Source: a virus
Lineage: Duplodnaviria; Caudoviricetes
Length of the DNA: 64,000 nt
Virus record (IMG/VR): IMGVR_UViG_3300009161_000021
Reading direction: 5' to 3' (one strand)
The position numbers were made by a program, and so were the translations under genes. The notes under the pieces were generated by a model. That model saw nothing but the letters and a program-made list of their open reading frames with translations. It was not told the DNA's origin and did no database searches. This document shows positions 2,794 to 58,800 of this stretch, in pieces; positions within the stretch are counted from its first letter, which is position 1, and each line of letters opens with the position of its first letter.

Positions 2794-3034
2794 CTTCTTC
2801 CATGATATCAACGTCATTCACGCTGACGTAGTGTCTCTTACCACCGTGAAGCAGGACGAGGATCTCATCGTAGCGTTCCCCCTCTCCTTCACCGAGCATC
2901 ATGGCATTGAGGGATCGATTTATAACAAGGGCGATCACCCCAACCGGCAGGTCGGGCGACCCGTACTTGACGTGGACGAGGCTGCCATCTTTGATTCCCT
3001 TAAAGTTACCGATCACGACGCGCTTATCCATCAT
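2783..3034 (-). CDS. small SH3/KOW-like hypothetical protein
   Basis: IKDGSLVHV...GVIALV; overlaps both neighbours. Confidence 0.6.
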   Translation of the reverse strand: MMDKRVVIGNFKGIKDGSLVHVKYGSPDLPVGVIALVINRSLNAMMLGEGEGERYDEILVLLHGGKRHYVSVNDVDIMEEDVE

Positions 3035-3398
3035 TGAGCACCTTCAGACACGGGTGACTTGTGTTCGTTGTCCCTCCGTCTCCCCACAGGATGAGAGCTT
3101 CTGGGTAGAGCTTGGGTTCTTTCTTGTCAAAGCGTGCCCAATCCGCGAGCACCCAACGGGTCATAAGGACAAGTCCCGTGTGCTTGTCCTTCCACATGGG
3201 GGTGTACCACCCATCCTTCAACTTTGCGTCCGGGTGCTCCACCCATCCGACGAGATCGCCGGGTCTGAGGGCGGGTTCGCATGATCTCTGGAAATCCGGC
3301 GGGGGCGCGTCGATGGGCCACGCGGTCCTGTACAAGATCTGACGCCAGTCCTCGCGTTGCTCGTATGATTCAAGGTCGGGTACTTCGGTCCGCTGCAT
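3024..3398 (-). CDS. hypothetical protein with internal PGDLV module
   Basis: ALRPGDLVGW; ATG 6 nt after a -10 box (leaderless). Confidence 0.65.
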   Translation of the reverse strand: MQRTEVPDLESYEQREDWRQILYRTAWPIDAPPPDFQRSCEPALRPGDLVGWVEHPDAKLKDGWYTPMWKDKHTGLVLMTRWVLADWARFDKKEPKLYPEALILWGDGGTTNTSHPCLKVLNDG

Positions 3399-4128: not shown

Positions 4129-4338
4129 TCAACGAGCGAGTTCCTGTCGTCGCCACTTTCCGTGACCCTCATCGCAGAGGCAGATATTTTCGAATCCAAC
4201 GACGGGAGTAATGGACCGTGCAGGGGCGCAGGCAGCATCGCAAGCCTGCTGCTGCTTTAGATTTGATCCCAAATTAGCGAAGATGAAGACCGATGCCACG
4301 ATCAGGAGGATCGTCGCGAAAATATCATACCTGTCCAT
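4129..4338 (-). CDS. small membrane-anchored hypothetical protein
   Basis: N-terminal hydrophobic helix, CxxxC and CxC motifs. Confidence 0.6.
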   Translation of the reverse strand: MDRYDIFATILLIVASVFIFANLGSNLKQQQACDAACAPARSITPVVGFENICLCDEGHGKWRRQELAR

Positions 4339-4543
4339 CGATCACCTCAAATTCATTCTCGAACATCAGATGCTTCTCATCACGCCACAGGACCCGCCAA
4401 GAGCCGTGTGCTCCTGGATGCAGGCGTCGAGGGGTGGCCACCCGTTCAACGAGAACGCCGGGCGGGCAGTCGATGGGGCAGGGGTGATGAAGCTTGAGAT
4501 ACTGCTCATTCGGCTTCACCAGGAGTCCGGGTCGAAGAGTCAT
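4325..4543 (-). CDS. MKPGDL-like small SH3/KOW protein
   Basis: LRPGLLVK start; C-terminal FEVIDG encoded by the junction-like GAGGTGATCGATG. Confidence 0.6.
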   Translation of the reverse strand: MTLRPGLLVKPNEQYLKLHHPCPIDCPPGVLVERVATPRRLHPGAHGSWRVLWRDEKHLMFENEFEVIDGQV

Positions 4544-5661
4544 ACGATCACCTCACGAAGTCCGATGGCTGCCGTCAGGTTGTCGATGGGAACATCCGCT
4601 AGCCGGCCCCGGATCGTCCCACCCATCCTCCGGACGCCGAAGATGACACCCGACATCCGGAGGTCCTTCACCTGCAGGGCGAAGTCCTTCTGGTTCTCGA
4701 TCCCACGATTCGCCTCCCAGGCAGCCTCGAGCTCGGAGACGAGCGCCTCGAACTTGCCACGGATCTCGTCGAACTGCGGACCGTACTCCGGGAAGTAGGA
4801 GAGGAACTCGCCCTCCTCGCCGGTCCGGATGAGCTCGAGGAGGCGCTTCTTGGAGTTGCCCTCCTTCAGGTGGTGGATGGCGAGGTAGCCTGGGTGCTTC
4901 ACCTTCGCCCGGATCACCCGACCGTCGGGGAGGAACTGGGCCACCACGTAGCCCTCCATCTCGAGAGCCGGGAGCTCCTTGAAGGTCGATTCGATGTCGT
5001 CGATGTTCCCGAGGTCGTAGGACTTGCAGACCTCCAGCCCATCGTCTTCCCATTCCTCAGGCTCGACCTCCCGCCCATTATCGTTGACACGGGCACCAAG
5101 GAGGACGATTCGTTCTTCGGGCTGGGAACAGACGACCCGGTTGTGAAGGGTGCAGAGCTCGAAGCAGAAGGTGAACTGTTCCTCGGTGACTGGAGGAACG
5201 AAGAGCCCCTTACCGTTCCAGACCCGCCAGAAGAGCTCGGCGAAGGTGAACGGGTTGTCGCCGACCAGACCACCGGCGTCCGGGGATCCCTTGGTGGAGA
5301 CGTGCCACTCGTCGCGGTAGAACCACATGTTGAGGAGGGAACCGTCCTCCTTCTTGAAGACGACCGAGCTCCCGATGTCCGGGACCGGAGCACCCTGCTC
5401 GACGCCCTCGCCCCAGTTGAGGAACCGGTCGAAGGGACGGCAGACGTGGTCCCAGTTGAAGTCCTCGTCGAGGATGTGACCGCGCGCTGAGCGGACGATC
5501 GGGTCGAGCTTCGGTGACTCGATCTGGTCGTAGACGAAGAGGACGAGGTTCGGGAACCGGGGGTGGCGCTTCGACTTGATGCCGAGCCGAGCCTCCAGGT
5601 CCTGAAGGTTCCAGCCCGACCGAAGCGCGGCCTGCAGTGGTGATTCGTTGAGATAGCTCAT
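4540..5661 (-). CDS. RNA ligase, T4 Rnl1-like
   Basis: Motif I KEDGSL, TFCFEL, EGYVV, RAKVK; GGAGGAG RBS before ATG 5661. Confidence 0.85.
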   Translation of the reverse strand: MSYLNESPLQAALRSGWNLQDLEARLGIKSKRHPRFPNLVLFVYDQIESPKLDPIVRSARGHILDEDFNWDHVCRPFDRFLNWGEGVEQGAPVPDIGSSVVFKKEDGSLLNMWFYRDEWHVSTKGSPDAGGLVGDNPFTFAELFWRVWNGKGLFVPPVTEEQFTFCFELCTLHNRVVCSQPEERIVLLGARVNDNGREVEPEEWEDDGLEVCKSYDLGNIDDIESTFKELPALEMEGYVVAQFLPDGRVIRAKVKHPGYLAIHHLKEGNSKKRLLELIRTGEEGEFLSYFPEYGPQFDEIRGKFEALVSELEAAWEANRGIENQKDFALQVKDLRMSGVIFGVRRMGGTIRGRLADVPIDNLTAAIGLREVIV

Positions 5662-5678
5662 TTGCTGCTCCTCCAATC

Positions 5679-5707
5679 ATAATACCACGGCCTACCCGGG
5701 TTTGCAC
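5679..5707 (-). promoter_or_regulatory. sigma70-type early promoter
   Basis: GTGCAA-17nt-TATTAT with TGG. Confidence 0.75.
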
Positions 5708-5710
5708 CGT

Positions 5711-5944
5711 TTACCAGATCCCGTCCTCCAGATCCCATTCCTCAACCAGCTCCTCGTTCACCTCGTGCCGCCACTGGCAGACCCTGCAGAGTGAATCGAT
5801 CCGGCATTCATATGTGCCCTCACCCGGACGCGAGACGAGGCAGGGTGCCCCCTGGATGGCACTCTTGAGGTGCTCCACGAGCTCACGCAGATCCTCGATC
5901 TCCTTGGGTCCCCATTCGAGTCGAATCCCAGCGTGCGCGCTCAC
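5711..5944 (-). CDS. hypothetical protein
   Basis: GTG at 5944 coupled (GTGA) to upstream stop; CxxC near C-terminus. Confidence 0.5.
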   Translation of the reverse strand: MSAHAGIRLEWGPKEIEDLRELVEHLKSAIQGAPCLVSRPGEGTYECRIDSLCRVCQWRHEVNEELVEEWDLEDGIW

Positions 5945-6192
5945 TCGTCGTCCCGCTCGAGCCAGGCATGGTACTCCTTCAGCGTGAGGGTCGCGGAGTT
6001 CTTCCCCTTGAAGAGCTTTCGCGGGTTCTGGCACAGCCAACAGTTGCAGCCGAACCGCGACTCCACGAATCGACCCGCACGCTTCTCCAGACCCTCCTCA
6101 CCGTACCCTAGCTTCCGAAGGATCACCTTCGCGCGGGTCTTCTTGGACTCGGTCTTGCTTCTCCGGTATGCCTTGCCTCTTCCCATCACCAA
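5941..6192 (-). CDS. basic hypothetical protein with CxCxxC
   Basis: GCNCWLCQNPRK; coupled to neighbours. Confidence 0.6.
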   Translation of the reverse strand: MVMGRGKAYRRSKTESKKTRAKVILRKLGYGEEGLEKRAGRFVESRFGCNCWLCQNPRKLFKGKNSATLTLKEYHAWLERDDE

Positions 6193-6776
6193 TCTCCCTC
6201 TGGGTTTCCATCAACGATGTGGGCCCGGACGCGGCGACCCTTCTTGTTGTAGAGGATCACGCGCTCCTGGAGCATTCGAACCTCCCACTCGTCCTTGCTG
6301 AGCTTCTTCAGGCTGAAGGGCCCGTAGCCATCGATCCCGATGAACTCTTCCTTCCCATAGTGAACGTTGGTGTGCTCACTCTTGGTGTTCGCCTTCATCG
6401 CAGAGATGATATCACCCAGCTGTCCCACCTCGTCCCGAAGGTCATCGTTCTCGTCCTTCAGGACACGGATGTCCTCACAGAGGGTATTGAGCTCATATCG
6501 GGCATCATCCCGTTCAGCCACCACCTTCTCCGCGTAGACTGGCCCAACGAAACCGGGACCACGCTCGGTCTCAGGTGGGACAAGCTTCCGAAGACGATCA
6601 TTCTCTTCGTCGAGGTCCATTCCGGCCTGATGCGCCTCGTAGCACTCCTTCCGAAGACTATCGATCTCATCGAGGAGGACCCTTACCTGCTCATTGTTGA
6701 GCAGTGTCCCACCGGCATTGATGTGCTCACGGATAGACTCCTCGGTCAACCAGTCTCGTTCAATTCTCTGACTCAT
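6186..6776 (-). CDS. coiled-coil hypothetical protein
   Basis: Acidic heptad-like segments; GGAGA RBS. Confidence 0.65.
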   Translation of the reverse strand: MSQRIERDWLTEESIREHINAGGTLLNNEQVRVLLDEIDSLRKECYEAHQAGMDLDEENDRLRKLVPPETERGPGFVGPVYAEKVVAERDDARYELNTLCEDIRVLKDENDDLRDEVGQLGDIISAMKANTKSEHTNVHYGKEEFIGIDGYGPFSLKKLSKDEWEVRMLQERVILYNKKGRRVRAHIVDGNPEGDW

Positions 6777-6788
6777 GGGTTCTCCTTC

Positions 6789-7001
6789 CTACAAACCATA
6801 CAGTCCGCGGTTCTCGTTTACAAACAGGCGATACTTCTCAAGAGTGGGATGCGACCCATCCCTGTCGCTCGGGTGACGTGTCGCATCAATCATCTTAACG
6901 TGCCGTTCGAGTACATTCCAGAGCTCGATGATCGCCTTGTCACGATCCTGGATGTCCTCATCTCGAATGTCAGCCAGGTCGATCTGTCCCCAGTTTCTCA
7001 T
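6789..7001 (-). CDS. hypothetical protein
   Basis: ATGA coupling to upstream gene. Confidence 0.55.
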   Translation of the reverse strand: MRNWGQIDLADIRDEDIQDRDKAIIELWNVLERHVKMIDATRHPSDRDGSHPTLEKYRLFVNENRGLYGL

Positions 7002-7216
7002 GTGTTCTCCTTGTCTCTATCGTAATCATCAGTGGTATCGTTTACAAGGTTGACTTCGCGAGGTTTGAACCATGCGATACCGACCGGTGTCTGGACTCTC
7101 AACGGGTTCGGGTAGGCCCCAACTTCGATGATAAGACCGATCTGTTCCCAGTATTTCTCGGCATAATCCTTGTCGTATTCCGGCGTGCAGATCCTGACGA
7201 GGTCACCGGCTTTCAT
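6998..7216 (-). CDS. MKPGDL-family cassette (array member 7)
   Basis: MKAGDLVRI; 14-nt overlap 7203-7216. Confidence 0.75.
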   Translation of the reverse strand: MKAGDLVRICTPEYDKDYAEKYWEQIGLIIEVGAYPNPLRVQTPVGIAWFKPREVNLVNDTTDDYDRDKENT

Positions 7217-7412
7217 CGATCACCTCCAGATTCTCCTCCGCCCATGGTTGCATCTCACCATCGATCAGGACCCACCAGTCGCACCAACTGTTGATGGGAT
7301 GGCCGTCCTCGAGTGTGACGGGTTCGACGATCACTCCGGTGTGACCGAGGATATCGTCAGGGAGTTTCTCATCGTCTGAGTGGACAATCCTGACCAGATC
7401 ACCGGGCTTCAT
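7203..7412 (-). CDS. MKPGDL-family cassette (array member 6)
   Basis: MKPGDLVRI...LEVIDESR*. Confidence 0.8.
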   Translation of the reverse strand: MKPGDLVRIVHSDDEKLPDDILGHTGVIVEPVTLEDGHPINSWCDWWVLIDGEMQPWAEENLEVIDESR

Positions 7413-7596
7413 TGATGGGTCTCGAGCTATCGTGGAGAATGTTATACGACCAGCTGGCGCTCAGTTTGCCATTCACCAGGATGGACATGTGATGAGGCGA
7501 CCACCAAGGTAGGACGAGAAAGATAAGTCCGTTGAACTCCTTCTCGTTTGCGAAGAAAGCGTCATCGTGGAAGCGACGGAGATCACCGGGCTTCAT
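7399..7596 (-). CDS. MKPGDL-family cassette (array member 5)
   Basis: MKPGDLRRF...PINEAR*. Confidence 0.8.
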   Translation of the reverse strand: MKPGDLRRFHDDAFFANEKEFNGLIFLVLPWWSPHHMSILVNGKLSASWSYNILHDSSRPINEAR

Positions 7597-7789
7597 GGAT
7601 CACCTCGAGGAACCCCTTCCAGATGTTGCTGATTCCTCTATCTCCCTCATTTAGAACGCGCCAGAATTGGTCTTTTGGTTGAAGGTTCCTGGCATGCGGA
7701 GGAATCTCGATGAGAAGGCAGATCTTGCCGTGAAGGTGGGCCCAGCTCGCATCTGTGTTGTTGATACGCGCAAGATCACCGGGCTTCAT
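7583..7789 (-). CDS. MKPGDL-family cassette (array member 4)
   Basis: MKPGDLARI...LEVIHEAR*. Confidence 0.8.
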   Translation of the reverse strand: MKPGDLARINNTDASWAHLHGKICLLIEIPPHARNLQPKDQFWRVLNEGDRGISNIWKGFLEVIHEAR

Positions 7790-7994
7790 CGATCACCTCA
7801 AGCAAGTCACTGTCGCAAGTGTAAACCCTGGAGTTGAGCAGGTAGTCGACGAGAGTCAGATCCATACCGGGTAATCCAGGAAGCTCACCCTTTCTCACGT
7901 CAAGGACGAGGACGTAGATGTCTTCTTGCGCGGGGTGCAGGCCCGCCGCGGTCAAGTGCCGCTTCATAAATTTGGCTAGATCACCGGCTTTCAT
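7776..7994 (-). CDS. MKPGDL-family cassette (array member 3)
   Basis: MKAGDLAKF...LEVIDEAR*. Confidence 0.8.
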   Translation of the reverse strand: MKAGDLAKFMKRHLTAAGLHPAQEDIYVLVLDVRKGELPGLPGMDLTLVDYLLNSRVYTCDSDLLEVIDEAR

Positions 7995-8175
7995 CGATCA
8001 GCTCGAGGTCGCTCTCCAGCATGACCCACCCAGGGTTCCCATTGACCAAGAGTCTGAAGAGCGGCTCATCCATCTGGTGGCCGACCTCTTCGATGATCAC
8101 GCCGACGAGACCCTCATAGCGATCTGGTTCATCGTCCAGGGCTGGAATGATGTGGACGAGGTCACCCGGCTTCAT
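7981..8175 (-). CDS. MKPGDL-family cassette (array member 2)
   Basis: MKPGDLVHI...LELIDESR*. Confidence 0.8.
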   Translation of the reverse strand: MKPGDLVHIIPALDDEPDRYEGLVGVIIEEVGHQMDEPLFRLLVNGNPGWVMLESDLELIDESR

Positions 8176-8401
8176 CGATATTCACCGAGAAGATCGGTTG
8201 GACCCAGAGGGCATTACCGTTGACAAGGAAGCGGGCTTTTCCGTCTGGAATTCGTGCAGGCTCCAGGAACATTGCGACTGAACCGTCGGGAATGAAGACA
8301 TGATCGTCTGAGTCGGTGTGTGGCTCGGCATCTAACCAACCGTAGATTCCAGCGAGACTGACGTGCTTGCTCCTGATCCTGACGAGGTCACCGGGTTTCA
8401 T
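8162..8401 (-). CDS. MKPGDL-family cassette (array member 1)
   Basis: MKPGDLVRI from ATG 8401 ...NIDEAG*; directly behind promoter 8426-8454. Confidence 0.8.
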   Translation of the reverse strand: MKPGDLVRIRSKHVSLAGIYGWLDAEPHTDSDDHVFIPDGSVAMFLEPARIPDGKARFLVNGNALWVQPIFSVNIDEAG

Positions 8402-8425
8402 GATGCTATTGTTCCTCATGGTCCT

Positions 8426-8454
8426 ATTGTACCATACCCTCGCCCCTGTTGCGC
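8426..8454 (-). promoter_or_regulatory. sigma70-type early promoter driving the cassette array
   Basis: GCGCAA-17nt-TACAAT with TGG. Confidence 0.7.
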
Positions 8455-8458
8455 GGGA

Positions 8459-8755
8459 TCACTCGACCCCACCATGTTCTACTGCCCATCGAGGGTTGAA
8501 TTTGTGCTCTTCGCTCTCATGACACAGCATAAAATCCAATCTGCCGCCAAAATTTGCCAAGATGGAACCGTCAGGTTTAAACTTCAAGTCTACTTCATCG
8601 AGTGCTTTATCAAAGCGATCTATGTGAAAGATGATATCGAAGGCTGACTCTTTTTCAATTCTGACGCGAAGGGCATCGATTGAGGAATAAGAGTGATAGA
8701 AAGCTACGTCTTTGATCAGTTCACTTGAAACTACGCAGTTGTATGATTCATTCAT
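8459..8755 (-). CDS. hypothetical protein
   Basis: ATG 8755 (MNESY) after AGGAG. Confidence 0.55.
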   Translation of the reverse strand: MNESYNCVVSSELIKDVAFYHSYSSIDALRVRIEKESAFDIIFHIDRFDKALDEVDLKFKPDGSILANFGGRLDFMLCHESEEHKFNPRWAVEHGGVE

Positions 8756-8839
8756 CGTTGTCTGTCTCCTTGTTGAATCCTGCCAGTCTGGCAATCTCAC
8801 GCCATCCTGGACGACCGTTGGTGTCAATGATGTTCTGGG

Positions 8840-9022
8840 TCATTCAGTCCTCCCATCATTCATCCTCTTCAGGATATTCTCCCTCTTCTTCTTGAGGGAC
8901 CGGATGTTCGCACGGTAGATCTTCACATTGTTGAGAACGACCTCCAGGAAACGCTCCTCTTCCCGAAGATCGGCCTCACAGACCTGCAGAGCCGTCTTCA
9001 GCTGCCAGTCGTCCATGGGCAT
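8840..9022 (-). CDS. small coiled-coil hypothetical protein
   Basis: TGATG coupling. Confidence 0.55.
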   Translation of the reverse strand: MPMDDWQLKTALQVCEADLREEERFLEVVLNNVKIYRANIRSLKKKRENILKRMNDGRTE

Positions 9023-9360
9023 CAGGTCATCTCACTGAGGAGTTTCAGGATCTTCTGGTCTTCCACATGTTGAATCTCTTCCTTCATCGCTGACATGATC
9101 GCCTCCATGTTACTAGGGGGAGGCTTTGCCGTTCCGGTCCTGAAGATCCTGCCTGCCCTCTGGGTGATCAGGATCCCATCGACCAGCACCTCCCAGATCT
9201 CGATGTGGTCCAGGTGGTCTGGGATTCGACTGATCGCGATGGTGGGCTTTGGATGGACATCGAGTGTCCGCCAGATCTCGTAGAGACCGCCGGGCTCGAT
9301 GTCCATGTGATAACCACGATCGGTGTGGTCAATCGACCAAGTTGCTTTGAGCTTCGGCAT
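9022..9360 (-). CDS. hypothetical protein
   Basis: Coupled ORF in an early operon. Confidence 0.6.
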   Translation of the reverse strand: MPKLKATWSIDHTDRGYHMDIEPGGLYEIWRTLDVHPKPTIAISRIPDHLDHIEIWEVLVDGILITQRAGRIFRTGTAKPPPSNMEAIMSAMKEEIQHVEDQKILKLLSEMT

Positions 9361-9572
9361 TATCGACCCATCGCACTGACAAGTCGAAAGTCTCGCTCAT
9401 CTTCATACTCACACTCGTGATCCTCTTTCGGAGCCAGGCCCTCGAGGCAAACCACGGCGCACCCGCATGTGTCGTTCAGCCAGAGGACTCGGTTGAAATC
9501 GTGGACGAGGTTCTCTCGTTTTAGCCACTTGGAAAACAGAGGATCGGTCTCAGGAATCTTATCCCAGCTCAT
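9360..9572 (-). CDS. hypothetical protein
   Basis: Coupled ORF, CGC..C. Confidence 0.55.
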   Translation of the reverse strand: MSWDKIPETDPLFSKWLKRENLVHDFNRVLWLNDTCGCAVVCLEGLAPKEDHECEYEDERDFRLVSAMGR

Positions 9573-10861
9573 TCCACACTCCCAATCTTCTTGGTGATCT
9601 GATGGTAACCGACGTAGTAGGTCATTCTGTTGATGGAGTCCTTGATGGCGTACTGGATGGGCTCGAAATCGTTTCCGTCCTCGTCCTGAAAGATGCCTGC
9701 TCTCTGTCGTTCCTTGATGACCCCCTCGATCTCGAATCGGACATGATCGCCGGGCTTCAGGTCCTGTCGGGGATCGCGTGGTCGAGGCGGAAGATGCTCG
9801 TAGGTCTCATTCATGACTCGAGTGAACTCATCCTCCTCGACCAGTCGTTGGGTTTGACAGTCACAGCGCTTCATTCCGCGGGTACCTGGGCCATATGAGA
9901 TGAGACCGGTGTCACCACACTTGGGACAGTTGGGTGCCCCGCGCATTCCTGCCGTGTCCTTGTCAAACTTCTTGCGGAGCTCCTGTCCCTCATCGACGAG
10001 ATCCTTGAAGCTCTTCGCGTCATCAAGGGCATTGTCACGGAGGTTCAACTGGCCAACTGTGTACCGAAGACGATGCTCATCAAGCGTTCTCAATGTCACC
10101 CGGAGGAGCGCGCCGTGCGAGACGTCCATCTCATCAGCATAGTGCAGAAGGAGTTTCTTGATGTGCTTCTTCATCGAATGATCATGGACATCGATGACCA
10201 CGCCTACATCGTTTGATGTGTTCACCTTGACAAACTCCAGGGCCTTGATCACCATCGCCGTGGTCCGGCCTGTCCGTCGCTGGTAGTTGCACTCGGAGTG
10301 ACCGCATTCCTTGTTGTCCTCGATTCGAATCCTGGAGAACTCAGCAGCTGGGAGGAATGGATTGCCTTCGGGTGTCTTGATGGCTCGGGTTGGATTGCAG
10401 CGCTTGCATTCCGTGTTGCCATGGAGGCATTTCTTGGGACCCTCATCATCGTCCATCAGGTCATCGAAGATCCGATCGAGTGCCTTGGCGTTCCTGATGT
10501 CCCGAGCCTTCAGTTCATCGCAGGTGCACATTGCCCATCCGTTCTGTCCGTGTGGGCAGTCCTTGTGGTGACCAGGGAGCGGAAGCTTTCGACCCATGTG
10601 ATCGATGACGCCATCGGCCTCAAGATCCGAGAGCTTCGCCTGCAGCGTGTGGGTGTGGAGCTCAGAGGCGCGGAGCTGAAGAGAGAGTCGACCGATCTCG
10701 GCAAGGAGGTCTTTTTCACGGTCCTGGGCCTGAATGCGATCAATGATGGGTAGCGGGATTTCCTTACAGGGATTGGTCATGTTTCCAAACTTGGGCATTG
10801 GGTGGAGGTTGCAGTTGAGGTTGGGACCTGCGACACCGCAGTTTGGACAGGGATTGGTCAT
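9569..10861 (-). CDS. mosaic protein: several Zn-ribbon motifs, degenerate P-loop-like segment, C-terminal KPGD SH3-like module
   Basis: CPNC, CPHG..CTC, CLHG..CKRC, CPKC..CDC; QRRTGRTT; DLKPGDHVRF; GAGGAG RBS. Confidence 0.7.
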   Translation of the reverse strand: MTNPCPNCGVAGPNLNCNLHPMPKFGNMTNPCKEIPLPIIDRIQAQDREKDLLAEIGRLSLQLRASELHTHTLQAKLSDLEADGVIDHMGRKLPLPGHHKDCPHGQNGWAMCTCDELKARDIRNAKALDRIFDDLMDDDEGPKKCLHGNTECKRCNPTRAIKTPEGNPFLPAAEFSRIRIEDNKECGHSECNYQRRTGRTTAMVIKALEFVKVNTSNDVGVVIDVHDHSMKKHIKKLLLHYADEMDVSHGALLRVTLRTLDEHRLRYTVGQLNLRDNALDDAKSFKDLVDEGQELRKKFDKDTAGMRGAPNCPKCGDTGLISYGPGTRGMKRCDCQTQRLVEEDEFTRVMNETYEHLPPRPRDPRQDLKPGDHVRFEIEGVIKERQRAGIFQDEDGNDFEPIQYAIKDSINRMTYYVGYHQITKKIGSVE

Positions 10862-11954: not shown

Positions 11955-11983
11955 ATCATACCACATCACCCGCCCGTTTGCAT
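11955..11983 (-). promoter_or_regulatory. sigma70-type early promoter
   Basis: ATGCAA-17nt-TATGAT with TGG. Confidence 0.75.
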
Positions 11984-12179
11984 GGGACTCGACCAGCGCT
12001 CGAGCATGCTCTCGCTGAGATGGCAGCGCCAATCCCCGATGAGAGCACCCCAGTACGGCTCCTCGGGCACCCAGCGATCACCCTCAAGATTGAGGAGGAG
12101 GACGAGCTTCCCTGAGAACATGTCAGTCCCCAGATGCTCGTCATCTGTGTCGAAGCGTCGGAGGTCACCGGGGTTTCAT
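11966..12179 (-). pseudogene. frameshifted MKPGDL-family cassette
   Basis: ATGAAACCCCGGTGA has one extra C versus the family motif, giving MKPR*; removing it gives MKPGDLRRFDTDDE...GKLVLLL, paralogous to 7399-7596. Confidence 0.7.
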
Positions 12180-12397
12180 TCGACAGGCTCCAGCCCGGAC
12201 TCATAGACCCAGCCCTGTATGCCATCGACGAGGACACGGATCTTGCGCTCACCACGTAGGTGAGCCACCTCGTGAAGGCCGAGGACGATCGCAGGGGTCC
12301 CTTCCGGGTACGGTTGTGACATTGCGTAGCCCGTCGAGAGATTGACAACATAAGTCCCCTCAGGATCGGAGATCTGCATGAGATCACCCGGTTTCAC
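12176..12397 (-). CDS. MKPGDL-family cassette
   Basis: GTG start inside junction 12381-12407; MKPGDLMQI. Confidence 0.75.
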   Translation of the reverse strand: MKPGDLMQISDPEGTYVVNLSTGYAMSQPYPEGTPAIVLGLHEVAHLRGERKIRVLVDGIQGWVYESGLEPVE

Positions 12398-12761
12398 TGA
12401 TCACCTCCGAGTTGTCCTCGACGTACCTGTGAGAGACGTCAAACTTTCCATCAGGGCCCATGCTGCTGCAACCGCGGGAGTCGATGCTGATAACAACGAA
12501 GGGTGCCGCACGCCCGTCCTTCCAGCGACGGAGCTCTCCGACCCGGACCGGGATGAACGCCCAGTCGTTTGCTGAGAGGGTGTAGATCTGGTCCCCGACG
12601 ATCGCTCTCGGACGCAAGTTGTACCACTTGTCCCTTCTGACGCTGACAACCTCGGCGCATGTGTTTAGAGGCAGGGTCTCGAAGTTCTTGTACGAGACCC
12701 TGTTCTTCCAGGCCTGCGAGCCCCGGTGCAGGGCGACGGCGGTGTATCCTTTCTTGATCAT
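12384..12761 (-). CDS. hypothetical protein with C-terminal VGELRRW SH3-like module
   Basis: ATG 12761 is 6 nt after a -10 box; ends EVISETG* in the junction motif. Confidence 0.65.
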   Translation of the reverse strand: MIKKGYTAVALHRGSQAWKNRVSYKNFETLPLNTCAEVVSVRRDKWYNLRPRAIVGDQIYTLSANDWAFIPVRVGELRRWKDGRAAPFVVISIDSRGCSSMGPDGKFDVSHRYVEDNSEVISETG

Positions 12762-12767
12762 GATACC

Positions 12768-12796
12768 ATCATACCCTATAGCGGGTCGGGTTGCAC
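12768..12796 (-). promoter_or_regulatory. sigma70-type early promoter
   Basis: GTGCAA-17nt-TATGAT. Confidence 0.7.
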
Positions 12797-12961
12797 GGGT
12801 TCGAGCTCGTCCCCAAAATAGTACATGCACTTCCCGTCCAGCGTCATCACGTAGAAAGCGCACCCGGGAAGATCCTCATGTGGGTGTGCCAGGATGAGAC
12901 CGAGACCGAAGTAGAAATTGTCAGCCGTCACGTGAACGAGATCACCGGGCCTCAGCTGCAC
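12776..12961 (-). CDS. MKPGDL-family protein
   Basis: LRPGDLVHV...GLGLIL. Confidence 0.65.
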   Translation of the reverse strand: MQLRPGDLVHVTADNFYFGLGLILAHPHEDLPGCAFYVMTLDGKCMYYFGDELEPVQPDPL

Positions 12962-13149
12962 GAGAGGTTTTCCAGCTCGTACTCGAAAGCAGCGACACGC
13001 TCACCCCCGATCAGGACATCGAAGAGAATGCTTTTGGGACCCAGCGCGCAGCCCTCGGAGACTATCATGCCGATCTTACCCGAGAATTGCTCCCAGTCCT
13101 CCATTCTGACGTGATCAGCCTTGATGCGAACGAGATCACCCGGTTTCAT
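12952..13149 (-). CDS. MKPGDL-family cassette
   Basis: MKPGDLVRI; 14-nt overlap 13136-13149. Confidence 0.75.
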   Translation of the reverse strand: MKPGDLVRIKADHVRMEDWEQFSGKIGMIVSEGCALGPKSILFDVLIGGERVAAFEYELENLSCS

Positions 13150-13309
13150 TGATCACCCTGGTCCTGTGCTTTCCAATATCGAATACAACCCCGCCCTGCA
13201 GGACCCTGATACGAGGTCCGCTGAAATACGATGGTGCCTCGGAGATGTAGATCGCAGGTGTGAGTTTTCCCATGTCATCTCGAAGCCAGATCAGATCACC
13301 GGGTTTCAT
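13136..13309 (-). CDS. MKPGDL-family cassette
   Basis: MKPGDLIWL from ATG 13309 ...RVINETG*. Confidence 0.7.
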   Translation of the reverse strand: MKPGDLIWLRDDMGKLTPAIYISEAPSYFSGPRIRVLQGGVVFDIGKHRTRVINETG

Positions 13310-13503
13310 GCTTTCTCCGACCCCTGCCCATCGGGCTCCTGGAGGTTGTAGGGGTGCATGCGACGAAGACCATCGTGGAACAGGACCACGAGGAGGGTGA
13401 AGCTGCTGTTCCATTGGTGATCCTCGACCTCGCCGATCACGACTCCGACCTCACCCCGGCCTTGGACACCCTTCTTGATCTGGACAAGATCACCTGGTTT
13501 CAT
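13306..13503 (-). CDS. MKPGDL-family protein
   Basis: MKPGDLVQIKKG...GEVGVVI, the most KOW-like member. Confidence 0.75.
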   Translation of the reverse strand: MKPGDLVQIKKGVQGRGEVGVVIGEVEDHQWNSSFTLLVVLFHDGLRRMHPYNLQEPDGQGSEKA

Positions 13504-14177
13504 CAGACCTCCAGGATGTTGCCGTGGCTCGTCACCGTGCCCATCCGCCCATCGTCGCAGCAGGACCCGTTGCTGAAGACCGTCGGCAGGCCGCCCACCG
13601 TCCGGGTGCCTGCGTTCCGGATGTCATCCGTCGAGTGGACGTGACCAAACAGCATGAACCGTGGTGGGGCCTTAGCAACACGCTTCCGGAGGGCGCTGCA
13701 GCCCACCAGCTCCACCTTATTGTGGTGGTCGTAGGTGGCATCCAGAACCCCATACGGGGGCCCGTGCGTGATCAGGATGTCAAGTCCCTCCGGAATGTTG
13801 TCCCAGATCCGGTTGATCGTCCCACGATCCTTCATGTACGCCCAGTCGCCGTAGCGCGGGCTGAAGGGAGATCCCCAGATCCGGAGCCCGTCGATGACGA
13901 TCTCCTCGTTGATGAGGAGGTGGATCTTCCGGTGCTCGACGAGCTCACGGGTGATGAGACCCTTCTCGAGGGATGTGTCGTGGTTACCCGGGACGAAGAT
14001 CTTCGTCGGGATCGGGAGCGTCGCGAACCAGTCGATGAAGGCACGGAGCTCCGACTCGTTGCGGTACGGGTCACGCCAGTTCGAGGCGTCCCCGCTGTGG
14101 ATGACGCAGTCGACCCCTTCGGGTACGATGAGTTGACCATGCGAACCATGTGTATCAGAGATGTGCCAGACCTTCAT
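13503..14177 (-). CDS. calcineurin-like metallophosphoesterase
   Basis: SDTHG, HSGD, PGNHD, THGPP, FGHVH motifs; start MKVWH at 14177. Confidence 0.9.
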   Translation of the reverse strand: MKVWHISDTHGSHGQLIVPEGVDCVIHSGDASNWRDPYRNESELRAFIDWFATLPIPTKIFVPGNHDTSLEKGLITRELVEHRKIHLLINEEIVIDGLRIWGSPFSPRYGDWAYMKDRGTINRIWDNIPEGLDILITHGPPYGVLDATYDHHNKVELVGCSALRKRVAKAPPRFMLFGHVHSTDDIRNAGTRTVGGLPTVFSNGSCCDDGRMGTVTSHGNILEV

Positions 14178-14392
14178 TCGCTCTCCTTGACGGGTCGGCA
14201 CCAAGTGCTGGGGACCGACCATCGTTCATTTTTATGTAGTACCAACCATTCATCACCGTACTTCTCATCGCCCGGACGGCGGGCGGTGACCTCCAGAAAG
14301 AGCCCGATCTTGGCCCTCTCCCAGTTGGGATGTTCACCGATCTCTTCCATTAGATTCGGCCGTGCAAACATGATGAGATCACCCGGCTTCAT
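14174..14392 (-). CDS. MKPGDL-family protein
   Basis: MKPGDLIMF. Confidence 0.7.
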   Translation of the reverse strand: MKPGDLIMFARPNLMEEIGEHPNWERAKIGLFLEVTARRPGDEKYGDEWLVLHKNERWSVPSTWCRPVKESE

Positions 14393-14401
14393 TCCGTCTC
14401 C

Positions 14402-14611
14402 TTACTCCTGAATCATACCAGGTTCAGTCCCGTCTTGCACAGGTTGCAGGGCGAGATCCGTCAGGGACAGAACACCGTCCTCCGGAGTGAGGACCTCGTA
14501 CACCACACCCTGACCAGTGATACTAAGGTTCTCGAGTCTGGTACCGATGACGAGCCCGATGATGGAGGGGCGTGTGCCTATGTAGAACCTGACGAGATCT
14601 CCGGGTTTCAC
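14402..14611 (-). CDS. MKPGDL-family protein
   Basis: MKPGDLVRF...IGLVIG (GTG start). Confidence 0.7.
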   Translation of the reverse strand: MKPGDLVRFYIGTRPSIIGLVIGTRLENLSITGQGVVYEVLTPEDGVLSLTDLALQPVQDGTEPGMIQE

Positions 14612-14614
14612 CGC

Positions 14615-14833
14615 TCACTCCTTTCCTACGATCTCACTTTCGTTCTCTATGTCATCAGCGAAGAACCACCTCTCCCCACCATTAGAGAGGACCCACCAGA
14701 TCTTGTCGGTGACTGTTGAGGAGAATGTCATCTGATCGGGACGGACCGTCATGAAGAGCAGGGACTCCGCCGGAGTTCCGACTCCTGCAAGACCGTCGGA
14801 CTTCCAGCGTCGAAGCTGCCCTGGCTCAATCAT
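14615..14833 (-). CDS. SH3-like cassette-family protein
   Basis: MIEPGQLRRW. Confidence 0.65.
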   Translation of the reverse strand: MIEPGQLRRWKSDGLAGVGTPAESLLFMTVRPDQMTFSSTVTDKIWWVLSNGGERWFFADDIENESEIVGKE

Positions 14834-29188: not shown

Positions 29189-30205
29189 TCAGGCGACCTT
29201 GCGCTTCTCAGCCCGGGCAGCAGCCTTCTTCTCCTTGTCCTTCCGGGCGATCTCGTTGAGCTTCTCGTCGGTCGTCCCACGCTGCTCATCGTAGAAAGCT
29301 GACATGTTCCGGCCAGTGACGAGCTGGATGACCGCGAGCTCCTTCGCCTTTGCCTCGACGACGCAGTCGATCTCGAGACCGTGAGGATCGACGGGGCCGT
29401 CGACGAAGTTGGAGTGGGCGGTGGCGGAGACGTCGCGACCTTCACGGTCCTTGGCTGACTCGGAGTAGTGAGTGCAGGGGCGGATACCAATCGGCCAGGT
29501 GCTGGCTGCCAGATGGAGGGCATCGCGTTCGGAGAGGCCGCCATCGCAGAACTTGTGGTGATGGTAATCGAAGACGATTGGGACGCCGGTACGCTCGTGA
29601 ACCTTGTGAAGATCGACGACGCTGTAGCAGTTCGCCTTGTCATCATTCTCGACGGTGAGCCGCCGCTTGACGTTCTCGGGTACACGCTCGAAGTTGCGGC
29701 ACCAGCGATCCATCGACTCGTCCTTCTGGCCGAAGGCGCCGCCGAGGTGGATGTTGATCTTCGCCTCAGGGGTGTTGGGTAGGCCGATGGCGTCCATGAT
29801 CTCGCCGTGGATACGGAGGTCGCGGATGCAGTTGGCGACGACGTGCTCACGGGGAGAGGTCAGGCAGTTGAACTGACCGGGGTGGAACGAGAGACGTTGA
29901 CCACCTGCCGCGGCGAGCTTGCCAGCCTGCTCGAGGCCAGCCCGGATGGCGGGCCAATCGGGTAGCTGCTCGAACTCGTATTCCGAGGCCCACGGGGCCA
30001 GGTCGGAGGTCATCCGATACACTTGAATCCCGTTGGTGTTGTTCCATTGGATGATACCGCAGAGTGTCTCCACATTCTCCAGGGTGAGGCGGGATGCATG
30101 CTGCACGCCCTTCTCGGCGAAAGTGCGCTTGATCATCGAGCGGAAGCCACCGCGTTTGGGACCAAGGGTCATGTTGAGACAGGCGTAGCCGAAACGAGTT
30201 GCCAT
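29189..30205 (-). CDS. uvsE: UV-damage endonuclease
   Basis: FGYAC, YRMTSDL, RLSFHPGQF, INIHLGG, TVENDD, FDYHHH, HYSE, EAKAKE. Confidence 0.95.
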   Translation of the reverse strand: MATRFGYACLNMTLGPKRGGFRSMIKRTFAEKGVQHASRLTLENVETLCGIIQWNNTNGIQVYRMTSDLAPWASEYEFEQLPDWPAIRAGLEQAGKLAAAGGQRLSFHPGQFNCLTSPREHVVANCIRDLRIHGEIMDAIGLPNTPEAKINIHLGGAFGQKDESMDRWCRNFERVPENVKRRLTVENDDKANCYSVVDLHKVHERTGVPIVFDYHHHKFCDGGLSERDALHLAASTWPIGIRPCTHYSESAKDREGRDVSATAHSNFVDGPVDPHGLEIDCVVEAKAKELAVIQLVTGRNMSAFYDEQRGTTDEKLNEIARKDKEKKAAARAEKRKVA

Positions 30206-37697: not shown

Positions 37698-39293
37698 CTA
37701 TTCCGCAGGAGAGTCATCTGTGATCGTGCAACCCACAGAAAGCAACATGCTCGCAGCGGAGTGCGCGTTCTCTAGAGCGGAGCGAACCACCTTCAGAGGA
37801 TCAACGATCCCGGACTCGAGAGTATCAACGTAGCGCTCCGTGGCAGCATCGTATCCCATGTTATCGCGGAGACGTTCAACCTTCGAGAGGACAAGCTCGG
37901 GATTGCGTCCAGCGTTCAAGACAATCTGACGGAGAGGGGCGCAGCATGATTGAAAGATGACCTCAGCGCCCTGTTTGAATGAATCGCTGCGATTCTTCGT
38001 GAGTCGGCGGCGAACCTTGGCTGCGGCACGGACAAGAGCAGTTCCACCGCCCGGGAGAATTCCCTCCTCGACGGCAGCTTTCGTGGCATGTAGAGCGTCA
38101 TCAACACGATCCCTGCGTTCCTTCAGCTCCGGTTCAGTTGCACCGCCGACCCTCAGGACAGCGACACCGCCAGAGAGCCGTGCAAGTCGACGACGTAGGA
38201 CCTCACGCTCCTGCTGATCGAGTGAGTTATCATCGATCTGGGATCTAATCTCCTTCGAGCGATCCTCGATCTCCTCTTTCTTGCCGGCTGCATCGATCAG
38301 GATCGTCCTGTATCGACCGACAATCGCGCGCTTGCAACGGCCCAGATCCTGGATCGTGACCTTGGCTAGCTCTGACTCTCCAACAATGACTCGCGTCCCC
38401 AGCAGCGCCGCGAGATCCTGAAGAGCGTGGAGACGGTTCTCACCGAACTCTGGACCCTTTATGGCACAAACCTGCAGGATACCCTTTGTTCGATTAACGA
38501 CAAGACCCTGCATCGCCTCGCCCTCGATATCATCAGCGACGATTAGGACGGGCTTCTGGGCATTATGAATCTTCTCGAGAAGTGGGAGGATCTCCTTCAG
38601 AGCCGTGATCCTATTGTTAGTTAGGAGCACGTATGGTGACTCAAGTGAGGAGACCATCTTCTCACTGTCTGTCACGAAGTAGGGAGAGAGGTACCCACGA
38701 TCGAGCTCAGCGCCCTCGACAACGTGAAGACTTGTGCTGAAACCCTTTGCCTCCTCAACAGTGATCGTGCCATCGCGACCGACAGCTCTCATCGCTCGCG
38801 AGAGAAGCTCTCCGATCTCACGTTCTCCATTGGCTGAGATCGTTCCAACCTGGATGATCTCCTCATCCGAGGAGACAGGTTTCGACATCGAGCGAAGCTC
38901 ATCGATAACGGAACCAACTGCCCACGACATGCCCGCGCGTACCTCGGGGCTGCTATGATCACCCGAAAGCACCCTAAGCCCACCGTTGAAAATCGCGTGG
39001 GTCAGCACGGTGGCTGTCGTCGTTCCGTCACCAGCAGCATCGCAGGTGCGATTTGCAGCCTCCTTGACGATCTGAGCACCGAGATTCATGTTACGATCCC
39101 GGAAATCGATCGCACGGGCGACGGAGACTCCATCCTTCGTGACGACCGGTGGTGCGCCCGGTATCTCAATTATCACGTTCTGACCTGAGGGTCCCATGGT
39201 GACCCTAACAGCCTGAGCGAGGGAATCGACCCCGCGTCTCAGACCCTCTCGTGCCTCATCATCAAATATGAGTGCCTTGAAACCCTCGGTCAT
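37698..39293 (-). CDS. groEL: group I chaperonin GroEL-like
   Basis: VTKDGVSVA, AGDGTTTAT, GGVAVLRVGG, EGILPGGG; no GGM tail. Confidence 0.95.
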   Translation of the reverse strand: MTEGFKALIFDDEAREGLRRGVDSLAQAVRVTMGPSGQNVIIEIPGAPPVVTKDGVSVARAIDFRDRNMNLGAQIVKEAANRTCDAAGDGTTTATVLTHAIFNGGLRVLSGDHSSPEVRAGMSWAVGSVIDELRSMSKPVSSDEEIIQVGTISANGEREIGELLSRAMRAVGRDGTITVEEAKGFSTSLHVVEGAELDRGYLSPYFVTDSEKMVSSLESPYVLLTNNRITALKEILPLLEKIHNAQKPVLIVADDIEGEAMQGLVVNRTKGILQVCAIKGPEFGENRLHALQDLAALLGTRVIVGESELAKVTIQDLGRCKRAIVGRYRTILIDAAGKKEEIEDRSKEIRSQIDDNSLDQQEREVLRRRLARLSGGVAVLRVGGATEPELKERRDRVDDALHATKAAVEEGILPGGGTALVRAAAKVRRRLTKNRSDSFKQGAEVIFQSCCAPLRQIVLNAGRNPELVLSKVERLRDNMGYDAATERYVDTLESGIVDPLKVVRSALENAHSAASMLLSVGCTITDDSPAE

Positions 39294-55878: not shown

Positions 55879-58800
55879 TCACATAACCTTGATTTTCTTA
55901 CCCTTTGTCGACAACCCGAAGTCAGACCGATCGACCTCGGCAACGCAGAGCGTGTATGGTTCAAAAGCAATCTTACCGTCCCAGTCCCACATGAACATCT
56001 TTTCCGTGTTTCCAGCCTCACCCATCACCTGAAGCATGAGATAGGGCTTCCCGTTCTTCGTCTTCTTCTCGACAGAGCTCACGATAACGAACCAGTAGAC
56101 ATCAAGTCTCTCCCAGTTATCGATGGAGTAAACCTCCTTGTCCTTAAATTTCTGACGAAGTTCGGTGGAGACCAGGGAGATTGGATCCATCTTGCCCGAG
56201 AGCTCGATCTGCATCAGGGCAATCTCGCGACGGGTCCACTCGGGCATGCCCTCGGTCTCGACAGTGAGCTCGCGGAACTTCTTGATGCCGCGCTGTGGAT
56301 CCTTCTTCGCCCACTTCTTGATGTCGTCAGCATTCTCGATGATGACGTGGTGCATCTGCTTCCAGGACGAGAACTGCTTTCCGCTTCCAACGATTCCCAT
56401 CGAATCGAACGCGTTTGCCTTGATGAGTGCCTCGAGAGCGCGCTTGTTGAACTTGGAGGGTCGCCACTGACCGTCCTCCTTCCAGAGCATCTCCTCGATG
56501 CTGCGGTAAGGTCGGCATGCCACGATCTCCTCGATTGCTGTCTCACCGACTCCCTTGATAGTGTTGAAGGATGGGATGAGGAGCTTACGCTCAGAGTCGA
56601 CCGACCACTGATTCGTGGAGAGGTTGATGTCGACGTTGCCGATATCGTACCCCATCTTCTTCACATCGGAGATCGCCTGGGCACGATCGTCAGGGTTACC
56701 GATCATCGACTCCATGTAGGCGCAGAGCCACTCGGATTCGAAGTACGTGAGGAGCCAGGCGCAGTAGAAGGAATCGATAGCGTAGGCCAGGGCGTGGGAG
56801 AGGTTGAACCCGTACCCCGCGAAGAAGAGGATGTCGTCCCAGAGCTTAGAGGCGACGGATTCCCTGATGCCATTGCCCACCGCGCCGTTGACGAAGTTGT
56901 CCTTCATCGCTTTCGCCTTCTTCATCGACTCCTCAGGGTTACCGCCCTGACGCTTCAGGATGTTCTTTCGAACCTTGTCGCACTCGGACTTTGGGAACCC
57001 AGCCACCACGTTGCAGAGCTGCATGAGCTGCTCCTGGAAGATGATGCATCCGAATGTCGGCTCGAGGACCTGCTTGATGAGTGGATGCTTGTAGTCGATG
57101 TCTCGCGGGTTCGCCTTCGCCTCGAGGTAGAGCTTGTCAACCTTCGCCGCGAGCGGACCAGGTCGGAAGACCGAAGTCAGGGTGGCGATGTCGATGATCG
57201 ATCGTGGCTTGGCGTTCTGGAAGAGACGCTGGGCACCCTTGCTGGTGAGCTGAAAGACACCTGGCGTTCGGGATGTTGCCTCGTGGTAGACGTTCTCATA
57301 CACCTTCTGATCATCGAAGTTGATAACGTCGGTTGCCATGTGCTCATCGAACCACTTCTTGACCTCCTGGAACGTCGGGTTCTTGATCCCATGATGACGC
57401 TGAAGAATTAGCTCGATCGTTCGATGGATCGTTCGAAGCGTTTCAAGCCCCAGCAGGTCGAACTTAACCCACCCCAGCATCTCGAGATGCTTGTAGTTCA
57501 TGCCCTCGACCCAGGGGGTCTGCTGCTCTCCCTTCGCCATGATGAGTGGCATCCGCTCGGCAATACGTTCCGAGATGATGACACCACCAGCGTGTCGCCC
57601 CAGAGCCTTGTTCTGCTTGAACAGGACCTTGATGGATTCCGAGACCTGTGGGTGGCGATCGATGAAGTTTCGGAAGCTCTCGCAGTGCTCGTAGCTGTCC
57701 TCATAGGTCAGGACGAACAGGTTCTTGTCATCCCCAACCTTCTTCGTTGCGTTCATGACCTCACGTTCGACGGTCTTCAGGGCCTCGTTAACCTCCTCGA
57801 GCGGAATGTCATAGAGACGGGAGACGTCGCGGATGAGTGTCTTCAGCTTGAAGGTGTTGTAGTTCGAGATTGGAACGATGTTCTCGCCGCCAAACTTCTC
57901 ACGTAGGATCGAGAGTAGGAGATCTCGGTTCTCGACGTCGGTGTCGATGTCGGGTAGACCCTCGCGGTCAGGGGATAGGAATCGCTCGAAGAGCAGACCG
58001 TACTTGATCGGATCAACGTCAGTGATGCCGAGGACGTAGCAGACGAGGGAGCCCGCACCGGAACCTCGACCGACGCCGACGAACATCTGCTCCTTCGCAG
58101 CGGAGATGATCTCCTTCATCGTGAGGAAGTAGGACGAGAAGTCCTTCTGCTTGATGACATCGAGCTCGTACTTCGCACGTTCGACGTACACAGGATCGGT
58201 GTGGAAACCCTTCGCGATGAGGCCCTGCTTCACGGATTCGACAAGAGCCTGGTTCGCCGTCTTACCCTCAGGGATGACGTAGCTCGGAAGCTTGACGGAG
58301 CGATCAGGTTGGACGTCACCGATCTCCTCATGGGCGAGATGCCAGGTTCTCTCGACCGCCTTGCGAATGAGCTCCTCCTCACCACGGTAGAAATCATCGG
58401 TCCCGCGGGAGATCATGAACTCATCCCACACCTGCGATGCGTTCTTCGGGTAGAGCTCACACTTCAGCTGATCCTTGCTCTTTGGGATGGAATCCGCCGA
58501 GAGGTCAGCGTAGTTGAGCCAGCCGAGCTTCTTGTAGATCTCGCGCTCCTTCCAGTGCTCAGGGCGGGCATAGTGGGAGTCGCAGGTAACAACGAGCTGG
58601 TCGGTCATGCCCTGACGCTTCGCGAACTCCATGATCGCGCGGTTGACGATGTGCTGGGCTGGGAGACGGTTGAACTGCAGCTCGAGCATCACGTTCTTGC
58701 GACCTACAGCCCAAGCAAGACCATCGAACGAGTTACCGACTCGGTTGATGACGCGCTCCATGATCGACGGATCATTGAGAAGCCGGCTGTTCAGGCTCTC

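Follow-up and report, generated by a model that had tools for sequence, protein, structure and literature searches.

How can small overlapping genes of a phage be gained, lost and reordered without breaking their expression? The question is raised by a gene array in IMG/VR virus record IMGVR_UViG_3300009161_000021 (Duplodnaviria; Caudoviricetes); the stretch analysed here, called the window, comprises 64,000 nucleotides (nt), or 64 kb; the contig it belongs to is at least 206 kb long. Seven open reading frames (ORFs) of 64-79 amino acids (aa) stand in tandem on the minus strand at 6998-8401. Their proteins all begin MK(P/A)GDL, and wherever two of these cassettes meet, at six junctions, the DNA codes for the end of one protein and the start of the next. 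In related contigs the cassettes differ in number and order, single cassettes are more similar than the genomes around them, and the edges of shared blocks lie at junctions. We regard it as probable that the array, which appears to be translationally coupled and to lie in a hyperplastic region, evolves by homologous exchange at its short coding junctions.

Seven cassettes chained by one junction

The minus strand carries all genes of the array region. The cassettes are listed from the head of the array to its end; letters denote cassette types, defined as clusters at an identity of at least 45%.

8162..8401, minus strand: cassette 1, 79 aa, type I, head of the array
7981..8175, minus strand: cassette 2, 64 aa, type B, 'DDEPDRYEG' subfamily
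7776..7994, minus strand: cassette 3, 72 aa, matched by the family hidden Markov model (HMM) at E = 3e-16
7583..7789, minus strand: cassette 4, 68 aa, family HMM match
7399..7596, minus strand: cassette 5, 65 aa, 'MKPGDLRRF' subfamily, family HMM match
7203..7412, minus strand: cassette 6, 69 aa, type A
6998..7216, minus strand: cassette 7, 72 aa, type N, end of the array, terminal tail LVNDTTDDYDRDKENT

Cassette 1 has an alternative ATG upstream at 8419, and cassette 7 ends with AAGGAG and an ATGA overlap onto the next gene (6789-7001). Interiors of cassettes share 43% nt and 22% aa identity; the mean pairwise identity of junctions is 79% (range 63-96%). A repeat search revealed a 33-nt repeat in six copies and a 27-nt repeat in seven copies, spaced by 181-226 nt. 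The 17-mer ATGAARSCNGGTGAYCT occurs 11 times in the window, always on the minus strand, and not once in 100 shuffles.

8159..8191, minus strand: junction 1/2, copy of the 33-nt repeat; its 14-nt overlap is 8162-8175
7978..8010, minus strand: junction 2/3, copy of the 33-nt repeat
7773..7805, minus strand: junction 3/4, copy of the 33-nt repeat, GAGGTGATCGATGAAGCCCGGTGATCT
7580..7612, minus strand: junction 4/5, copy of the 33-nt repeat, 1 of 27 nt different from junction 3/4
7396..7428, minus strand: junction 5/6, copy of the 33-nt repeat, weak Shine-Dalgarno (SD) sequence (AGACCCATCA)
7200..7232, minus strand: junction 6/7, copy of the 33-nt repeat

All six boundaries of the window array share the 14-nt start/stop overlap ATGAARSCNGGTGA, which reads [D/N/H]-E-[A/S]-[R/G]-stop in the upstream frame and M-K-P/A-G-D in the downstream one. 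In four of the six, the SD-like GAGGTGATC, which is complementary to the 3' end of 16S rRNA, directly precedes the ATG, with GAGGTGA 5-6 nt before this codon. An earlier note, made from the letters of the window alone, had described seven paralogs chained by 14-nt overlaps, a junction that encodes upstream C-terminus, SD, downstream start and upstream stop at once, and copies at 7580 and 7773 that are nearly identical between divergent interiors. The ORFs, their common starts and the 17-mer count bear these descriptions out, well beyond what chance would give. The note had also pointed to an internal direct repeat, GGTGATC-N10-GGTGATC. This repeat is real, but it is present in just 11 of 37 cassette-cassette junctions across loci and follows from the V-I and G-D-L codons; it was thus rejected as a functional element.

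To what extent is the junction constrained by its coding and translation duties? Constraint was analysed in 46 distinct junctions with the 14-nt overlap and 16 family starts without it, taken from the window and 12 related loci. All synonymous sites of the downstream frame vary within the overlap: the third base of the K codon is A in 26 and G in 19 junctions, that of the P codon C in 22, G in 20, A in three and T in one, and that of the D codon T in 28 and C in 17; that of the L codon uses all four bases. The sole fixed third position of the overlap is the T of GGT, which is fixed because it creates the upstream TGA. Without overlap it is T in ten starts, C in four and A in two (C or A in 6 of 16). 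Residues of the upstream tail are set by the codons of the downstream gene. Before the ATG, Val is written GTG in 61% of junctions compared with 20% genome-wide, and Glu is written GAG in 89% compared with 77%, which fits selection for the SD sequence GAGGTGA; in terminal cassettes this strand is kept as NLVND, without the SD wording.

Folding of the six 71-nt junction windows (z scores -0.34, +0.32, +0.74, -2.52, -0.55 and -0.29) gave no shared structure, and the repeat search found no inverted repeats at junctions. An attC-like hairpin was considered for the junctions and rejected, as RNA structure was neither significant nor common. Protein, stop and SD constraints fully account for the conservation of the junction, and a separate recombination signal is unnecessary. 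The stop/start layout is that of a translationally coupled operon, in the six window junctions (GAGGTGA inside the upstream coding sequence in four of them) and likewise across the 46, and the cassettes are probably coupled in translation.

Two further features of these sequences were observed. GATC occurs twice in the consensus junction GGTGATCGATGAAGCCCGGTGATCT (for example at 7773-7805), which also includes the palindrome ATCGAT. Of the family genes of the window and its relatives, 57% have AAA as second codon, whereas AAA makes up 14% of Lys codons in the long ORFs of the window; A-rich codons are favoured after the start codon, and the AAA excess fits this preference.

8424..8436, minus strand: extended -10-like element TGGTACAAT / TATGGTACAATAG, located in the gap of 57 nt that precedes cassette 1; candidate promoter

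This element may represent a promoter for the array. A sigma-70 scan made no call at 8424-8436, and the element is not conserved, being absent upstream of cassette 1 in the related contigs L014 and L010. That all seven genes follow one promoter, as had been stated, is therefore unproven.

Beyond the gap, 8459-8827 on the minus strand is listed as a 122-aa ORF with TTG start; its start is probably the ATG at 8755 (MNESYN..., 98 aa, as called in L007). Upstream of the 98-aa gene is a short gene that ends EIARLAGFNKETDNDE* and shares 8 nt (ATGAATGA) with it. In L012 and L010 this short gene has a 54-aa homolog, which ends with a 14-nt junction onto a cassette.

Cassette number and order in related loci

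Relatives of the locus were recovered with the conserved downstream 196-aa gene (6186-6776) as anchor, and more contigs were added from look-ups of family proteins; RNA ligase as anchor recovered no relatives in the viral contig set. The number of cassettes per orthologous site ranges from one (L013, L018) to at least eight (L015). Seven are present in the window and in the near-identical L007 and L009. L012 has cassettes 6 and 7 only, L014 has cassette 1 and a different last cassette, and in L010 a 5-like cassette comes directly after cassette 1. Arrays read as follows.

Window: I=B=.=.=.=A=N
L012: A=N
L014: I=M
L010:.=I=5-like
L015:.=F=B=C=G=A
L001:.=F=x=C=G=A
L021: E=O=C=B
L022: E=O=x=C=B
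L023: X=B=H

L021 and L022, which are 87-89% identical, differ by exactly one 181-nt cassette, whose edges are located in a 23-nt stretch common to both flanking junctions. The extra cassette is not a copy of its neighbour; its ortholog precedes cassette C in L001. Order is also variable. B is found before C in L015 and after C in L021 and L022, and type B has five distinct neighbour contexts in total. The type H cassette occurs in the window too, placed in a different cluster.

Two side observations concern these contigs. In L003/L004, a distant relative, positions 4500-9700 of a 252-kb contig hold at least three separate arrays with 14-nt overlaps and two A-type copies, one with a terminal tail and the other with a degenerate junction tail. 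L020 and L021 are 100% identical except inside the metallophosphoesterase gene, where 354 nt of L021 (931-1284) correspond to 100 nt of L020 (4074-4173); the two may differ by a genuine deletion or only in their assembly.

Break points and exchanged tails

Single cassettes are 92-95% identical between genomes with backbone identity of 72-82%. When L015 or L001 is compared with L021, cassette C shows 94% identity (backbones 78%), and cassette 1 (type I) is 92% identical between the window and L010 (backbone 77-82%). For the block of cassettes 6 and 7 (A=N), identity between the window and L012 is 89-92%, and the ATPase, metallophosphoesterase and H genes are 69-79% identical. The left edge of this block is exactly the ATG of cassette 6, that is, junction 5/6. 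All 31 homology-block ends found in arrays within 110 nt of a junction are located between -11 and +25 nt from the junction ATG. Judged from these alignments, the single cassette is clearly the unit in which sequence is shared.

Ends of cassettes are variable in their own right. The A-type body is found with a junction tail (ENLEVIDESR, followed by another cassette) or with a terminal tail (ENLRLVNDxxDGYDRxKE, followed by a non-family gene), the latter in L019, L011 and L003; the terminal tail is also borne by N, M and other bodies. Such tail swapping on one body is as predicted by recombination inside the last-strand/junction region. Relics were detected as well, namely a solo junction, MKPGDPCNSP*, in L010 and degenerate junction tails in L021, L022 and L003.

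Among Logan contigs, one informative variant has cassette 6 fused to the terminal tail (X7 record 25, side 131 nt). Junction-to-junction joints in Logan contigs were considered as in-population rearrangements and rejected: their sides measure 21-33 nt with 85% likeness and probably belong to other family members.

Polymorphism of cassette number and order with break points in the junction had been predicted by the earlier note, and it is found in relatives, as the L021/L022 indel, the B-C and C-B orders and the 31 block ends. The same note had held against its own proposal the case that order and number are fixed across relatives and that protein constraint explains the junction; fixed order and number were not seen, and conservation by constraint holds.

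A family of small SH3-like proteins

No Pfam family matches any of the seven cassettes at E <= 1, including the KOW (PF00467) and YorP (PF09629) models (E > 1), and a PHROG scan of the seven gave no useful E-value. The AlphaFold2 model of cassette 2, built from a 94-sequence alignment, is a five-strand barrel (strands 6-9, 24-34, 37-44, 47-53 and 57-59) with mean predicted local distance difference test score (pLDDT) of 90.4. Its neighbours in Foldseek and VIA-align are PetP, YorP, NusG/Spt5/eS4 KOW, Tudor/PWWP and Mib repeats, with template modelling (TM) scores of 0.6-0.75 and Z scores up to 7.4; NusG/Spt5 KOW domains score Z 6.1-6.9, and YorP (2heq) scores TM 0.64 and Z 6.8. The nearest entries of a viral structure library are uncharacterised small phage proteins and DUF4314. 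ESM Atlas neighbours comprise viral hypothetical clusters, one 'KOW domain-containing' viral cluster, DUF2862, YorP and DUF4314, and a PDB profile search returned weak SH3-like matches (CarS, E 0.15; eL21, E 0.64). Five strands, about 60 aa and SH3, Tudor and KOW barrels as top neighbours are the marks of an SH3-like small beta-barrel. The model thus supports the SH3/KOW-like fold that had been assigned to the cassettes from their sequence; no specific family and no function follow from the structural matches.

An exhaustive profile search of 1.84 billion representatives retrieved 229 clusters (E <= 1e-3); the family is confined to phage-like metagenome contigs. Ratios of nonsynonymous to synonymous substitution rates (dN/dS) are 0.15-0.46 in four ortholog pairs, with 0.38-0.46 for cassette 1 orthologs (L014 and L010, 90-92% nt identity) and 0.15 for the cassette 6 ortholog (L012, 94% nt identity). 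The cassettes are therefore real genes under purifying selection. A full-text literature search for 'MKPGDL' found no paper. We infer that the cassette proteins are accessory binders of host macromolecules; an anti-defence or host-takeover role, as suggested in the earlier note, is pure conjecture.

The count of seven paralogs describes the array correctly, but the family is larger. A profile search of the window detected at least ten further members, at 11966-14833, 2384-2817, 3024-3398 and 4325-4543.

11966..14833, minus strand: second cluster, about ten family members around the metallophosphoesterase gene, detected by the family profile
4325..4543, minus strand: divergent family member (MTLRPGLLV...FEVIDGQV*), with GAGGTGATCG and a 14-nt overlap onto the non-family gene 4129-4338

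The second cluster has the same 14-nt overlap at two junctions (12397 and 13149), one of which comes after a non-family 159-aa gene. The gene at 4129-4338 (minus strand) encodes an unrelated hydrophobic membrane protein of 69 aa (MDRYDIFATILL...), and the TGA of its overlap is derived from TAT GAT. The junction also joins non-family genes on either side: 12384-12863 onto 12397 and 4325-4543 onto 4338 in the window, and 4220-4384 onto 4371 in L012.

One member of the second cluster, 11966-12179 (minus strand), has a start that reads ATGAAACCCCGGTGA, in which a run of four C replaces the usual three, so that translation gives MKPR*; in the +1 frame an intact MKPGDLRRF-type cassette follows. Possible reasons are a frameshift of recent origin, an assembly error in the homopolymer or slippage at this site.

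How the array may evolve

Homology-driven recombination, which we infer to be the mechanism, would act on a locus in the hyperplastic, early/replication-side region of a freshwater jumbo phage. The downstream codons ATG AAR CCN GGT GAY hold the upstream TGA and force the last four upstream residues to be [D/N/H]-E-[A/T/S]-[R/G]. The last upstream strand, L-E-V-I, is written CTN GAG GTG ATC, with GAGGTGATC as SD for the next gene. Cassette ends, near-identical over about 30-35 nt, are the sole DNA homology left between old paralogs. With such ends and interiors at about 43%, general homologous recombination or template switching would therefore be channelled to junctions, either within one genome or between co-infecting relatives. 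Each event would delete, add, replace or reorder whole cassettes, with stop, SD and start again functional afterwards. A separate end-cap tail is kept by the last cassette and would couple it to the next non-family gene.

Several points weigh against this mechanism. The comparison sequences are all metagenome contigs, and no event was observed directly. The 31 block ends are not independent of one another, and BLAST extension into the conserved junction biases ends toward it. Logan contigs simply break at junctions, with joint sides of just 21-33 nt. Selection alone would also keep only events that respect gene boundaries, and a repeat of 23-35 nt is short for efficient homologous recombination. 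No RNA run with the locus was found, and the proteins have no Pfam or PHROG match.

A bolder possibility, which we consider doubtful, is that the junction is a selected universal adaptor, with stop, SD and start placed in the conserved first and last strands of the barrel. Cassettes, and some non-family genes too, would then be plug-compatible and move among co-infecting jumbo phages, possibly as one-cassette circles without site-specific recombinase, forming a combinatorial repertoire of small binders with fast turnover for host takeover or counter-defence.

We consider it unlikely that the locus is an ordinary tandem array of paralogs, in which junction conservation is a by-product, the junction is no preferred site of exchange, and differences arise from random illegitimate recombination and differential loss under selection. 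Coding, SD or stop does explain each conserved junction base, synonymous sites vary, the GGT codon is lost at non-overlapping starts, and the relics (MKPGDPCNSP* of L010, degenerate tails of L021 and L003) are imprecise. However, loss alone cannot give the inversion of B and C, the same 23-nt repeat is found at both edges of the one-cassette indel, and cassettes with edges at junctions are 12-16 points above backbone similarity.

Could the array instead be a dedicated mobility system, integron-like or resembling the mini-circles of promoter-early stem-loop (PeSL) elements? Here the junction would be kept as a universal adaptor by second-order selection, excised one-cassette circles would re-insert at any junction, possibly with the help of a phage-encoded recombination function, and the result would be a diversifying arsenal for anti-defence or host takeover. 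Cassette types do travel between arrays and genomes, the junction couples to non-family genes on either side, and the family is limited to phage-like metagenome contigs. Against this, no integrase or other recombinase was detected when ORFs up to about 10 kb away on either side were scanned with Pfam and PHROG, and no conserved hairpin is present (z -0.6 to +0.7 in five of six junctions). Nucleotide conservation does not exceed coding and SD needs, no circles were seen in the assembled contigs, and selection on orthologs is purifying, not diversifying. We consider such a system improbable. Of the earlier description as an 'integron-like' and 'recombinase-free' system, the first term finds neither an attC-like structure nor an integrase within about 10 kb; the second is right in that no site-specific recombinase is nearby, but general homologous recombination is still required. 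In total, the interpretation given there is partly supported.

An assembly artefact, in which de Bruijn assemblers joined co-occurring strains at junction k-mers, is very unlikely. Repeats of 23-33 nt do exceed small assembly k values, and contigs of several runs end exactly at junctions. However, a 33-nt repeat is spanned by reads of 100-150 nt, and assembly chimerism is made unlikely by the recurrence of the same arrangements in independent samples and assemblers (window, L007 and L009; L003-L006 in four copies; L013 and L018; L020 and L021), the arrangement of L023 being found in four samples. Finally, that the overlaps are programmed +1 frameshift sites yielding fused multi-barrel proteins can be dismissed almost outright: the SD-like element before the stop and the rare CGG codon are loosely like the prfB site, but no slippery codon is conserved (the pre-stop codon is CGG, GGG, AGG or TGG), every cassette begins with an ATG or GTG of its own at ideal SD spacing, and of the 229 family representatives nearly all stand alone as proteins of 57-99 aa matched from residue 1.

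Phage and genomic context

Judged by its gene content, the window seems to come from an uncultured jumbo phage of fresh water. It contains genes for a DnaE-type polymerase, GroEL, ATP-dependent DNA ligase, RNA ligase, AAA ATPase and UvdE along with many ORFans, nearly all on one strand, and has a GC content of about 55%. Three of them are located as follows.

29189-30205, minus strand: UvdE UV-damage endonuclease
37698-39293, minus strand: GroEL chaperonin
55879-59502, minus strand: DnaE-type replicase

DnaE is less than 32% identical to that of any deposited phage, so there is no close cultured relative. Neither blastn of the locus nor tblastn of cassette 2 gave a match among 50,697 deposited phage genomes. 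Identical or related contigs derive from freshwater and lake metagenomes. The array is flanked by AAA ATPase and metallophosphoesterase genes upstream and by RNA ligase and DNA ligase genes downstream; these four and ORFans make up the ORFs within about 10 kb. The metallophosphoesterase was considered as an Mre11-like nuclease and rejected, as it matches generic Metallophos models only.

Comparison with known systems

The nearest precedent is modular shuffling mediated by PeSLs, units of about 100 bp between ORFans of T4-like phages that serve as exchange points and form mini-circles (Arbiol et al. 2010, PMC2839356; Comeau et al. 2014, PMC4122927). In both systems a short conserved motif is located between small non-essential ORFs of a plastic region, ORFs are deleted, inserted or replaced with expression signals kept, and where related phages differ by an indel or a replacement, copies of the motif mark its limits. 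In contrast to PeSLs, which are non-coding and intergenic, consist of a sigma-70 promoter and terminator and separate unrelated ORFans, the motif described here is about 30 nt long, dual-coded and set in overlapping genes of one fold family. The PeSL motif carries transcription signals, whereas the junction carries translation signals (SD, start and stop); no promoter-like or terminator-like site is present at any junction, and the 14-nt overlaps leave no intergenic DNA. Mini-circles are demonstrated for PeSLs, whereas the cassette array is known from assembled contigs alone. The array works alike and is not a member of this class.

Like integrons, the array has cassettes that are small and mostly lack a promoter, vary in number and order and share a repeated boundary element. 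Unlike integrons, with their IntI, attI and attC, it has no tyrosine recombinase, no attI and no attC-type palindrome or hairpin; its boundary is coding and exchange presumably proceeds by general homology. 'Integron-like' is thus an analogy only, and the array is not an integron.

Tandem arrays of paralogs evolve by unequal crossing-over, as in the 'gene accordions' of poxviruses, and Botstein's modular theory of phage evolution is said to invoke 'linker' or boundary sequences. Here, too, copy number would change by recombination between repeats, and mosaic borders coincide with gene borders. Unlike in gene accordions, the units are old, diverged paralogs (22% aa identity) with homology at their ends only, and exchange would therefore swap different genes rather than amplify one.

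With the small SH3-like proteins YorP (PF09629, 2heq), PetP (2n5u, 7r0w), NusG/Spt5 KOW, DUF4314 and DUF2862 the cassette proteins share a five-strand barrel of 60-80 aa with a KOW-like G-D-x-V ... G-x-x-G-x-I pattern; many such proteins come from phages or prophages and have no assigned role. The cassettes show no sequence-level match to these families (Pfam E > 1); the likeness is at the level of fold (Z about 7, TM 0.6-0.75). The 229 clusters, at 50% identity, represent a previously unnamed SH3-like phage family without Pfam or PHROG model. Its genes turn over rapidly, which suggests that the proteins act where phage and host meet.

Few systems are documented in which fast-turnover accessory genes of phages are gained and lost without breaking expression, PeSLs being the main example. 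The locus would reach the same outcome by another device, a recombination-competent protein-coding boundary that bears translation signals. Found in a clade of freshwater jumbo phages without cultured members, it lends itself to a clean test, set by nature, of whether gene shuffling is channelled by homology.

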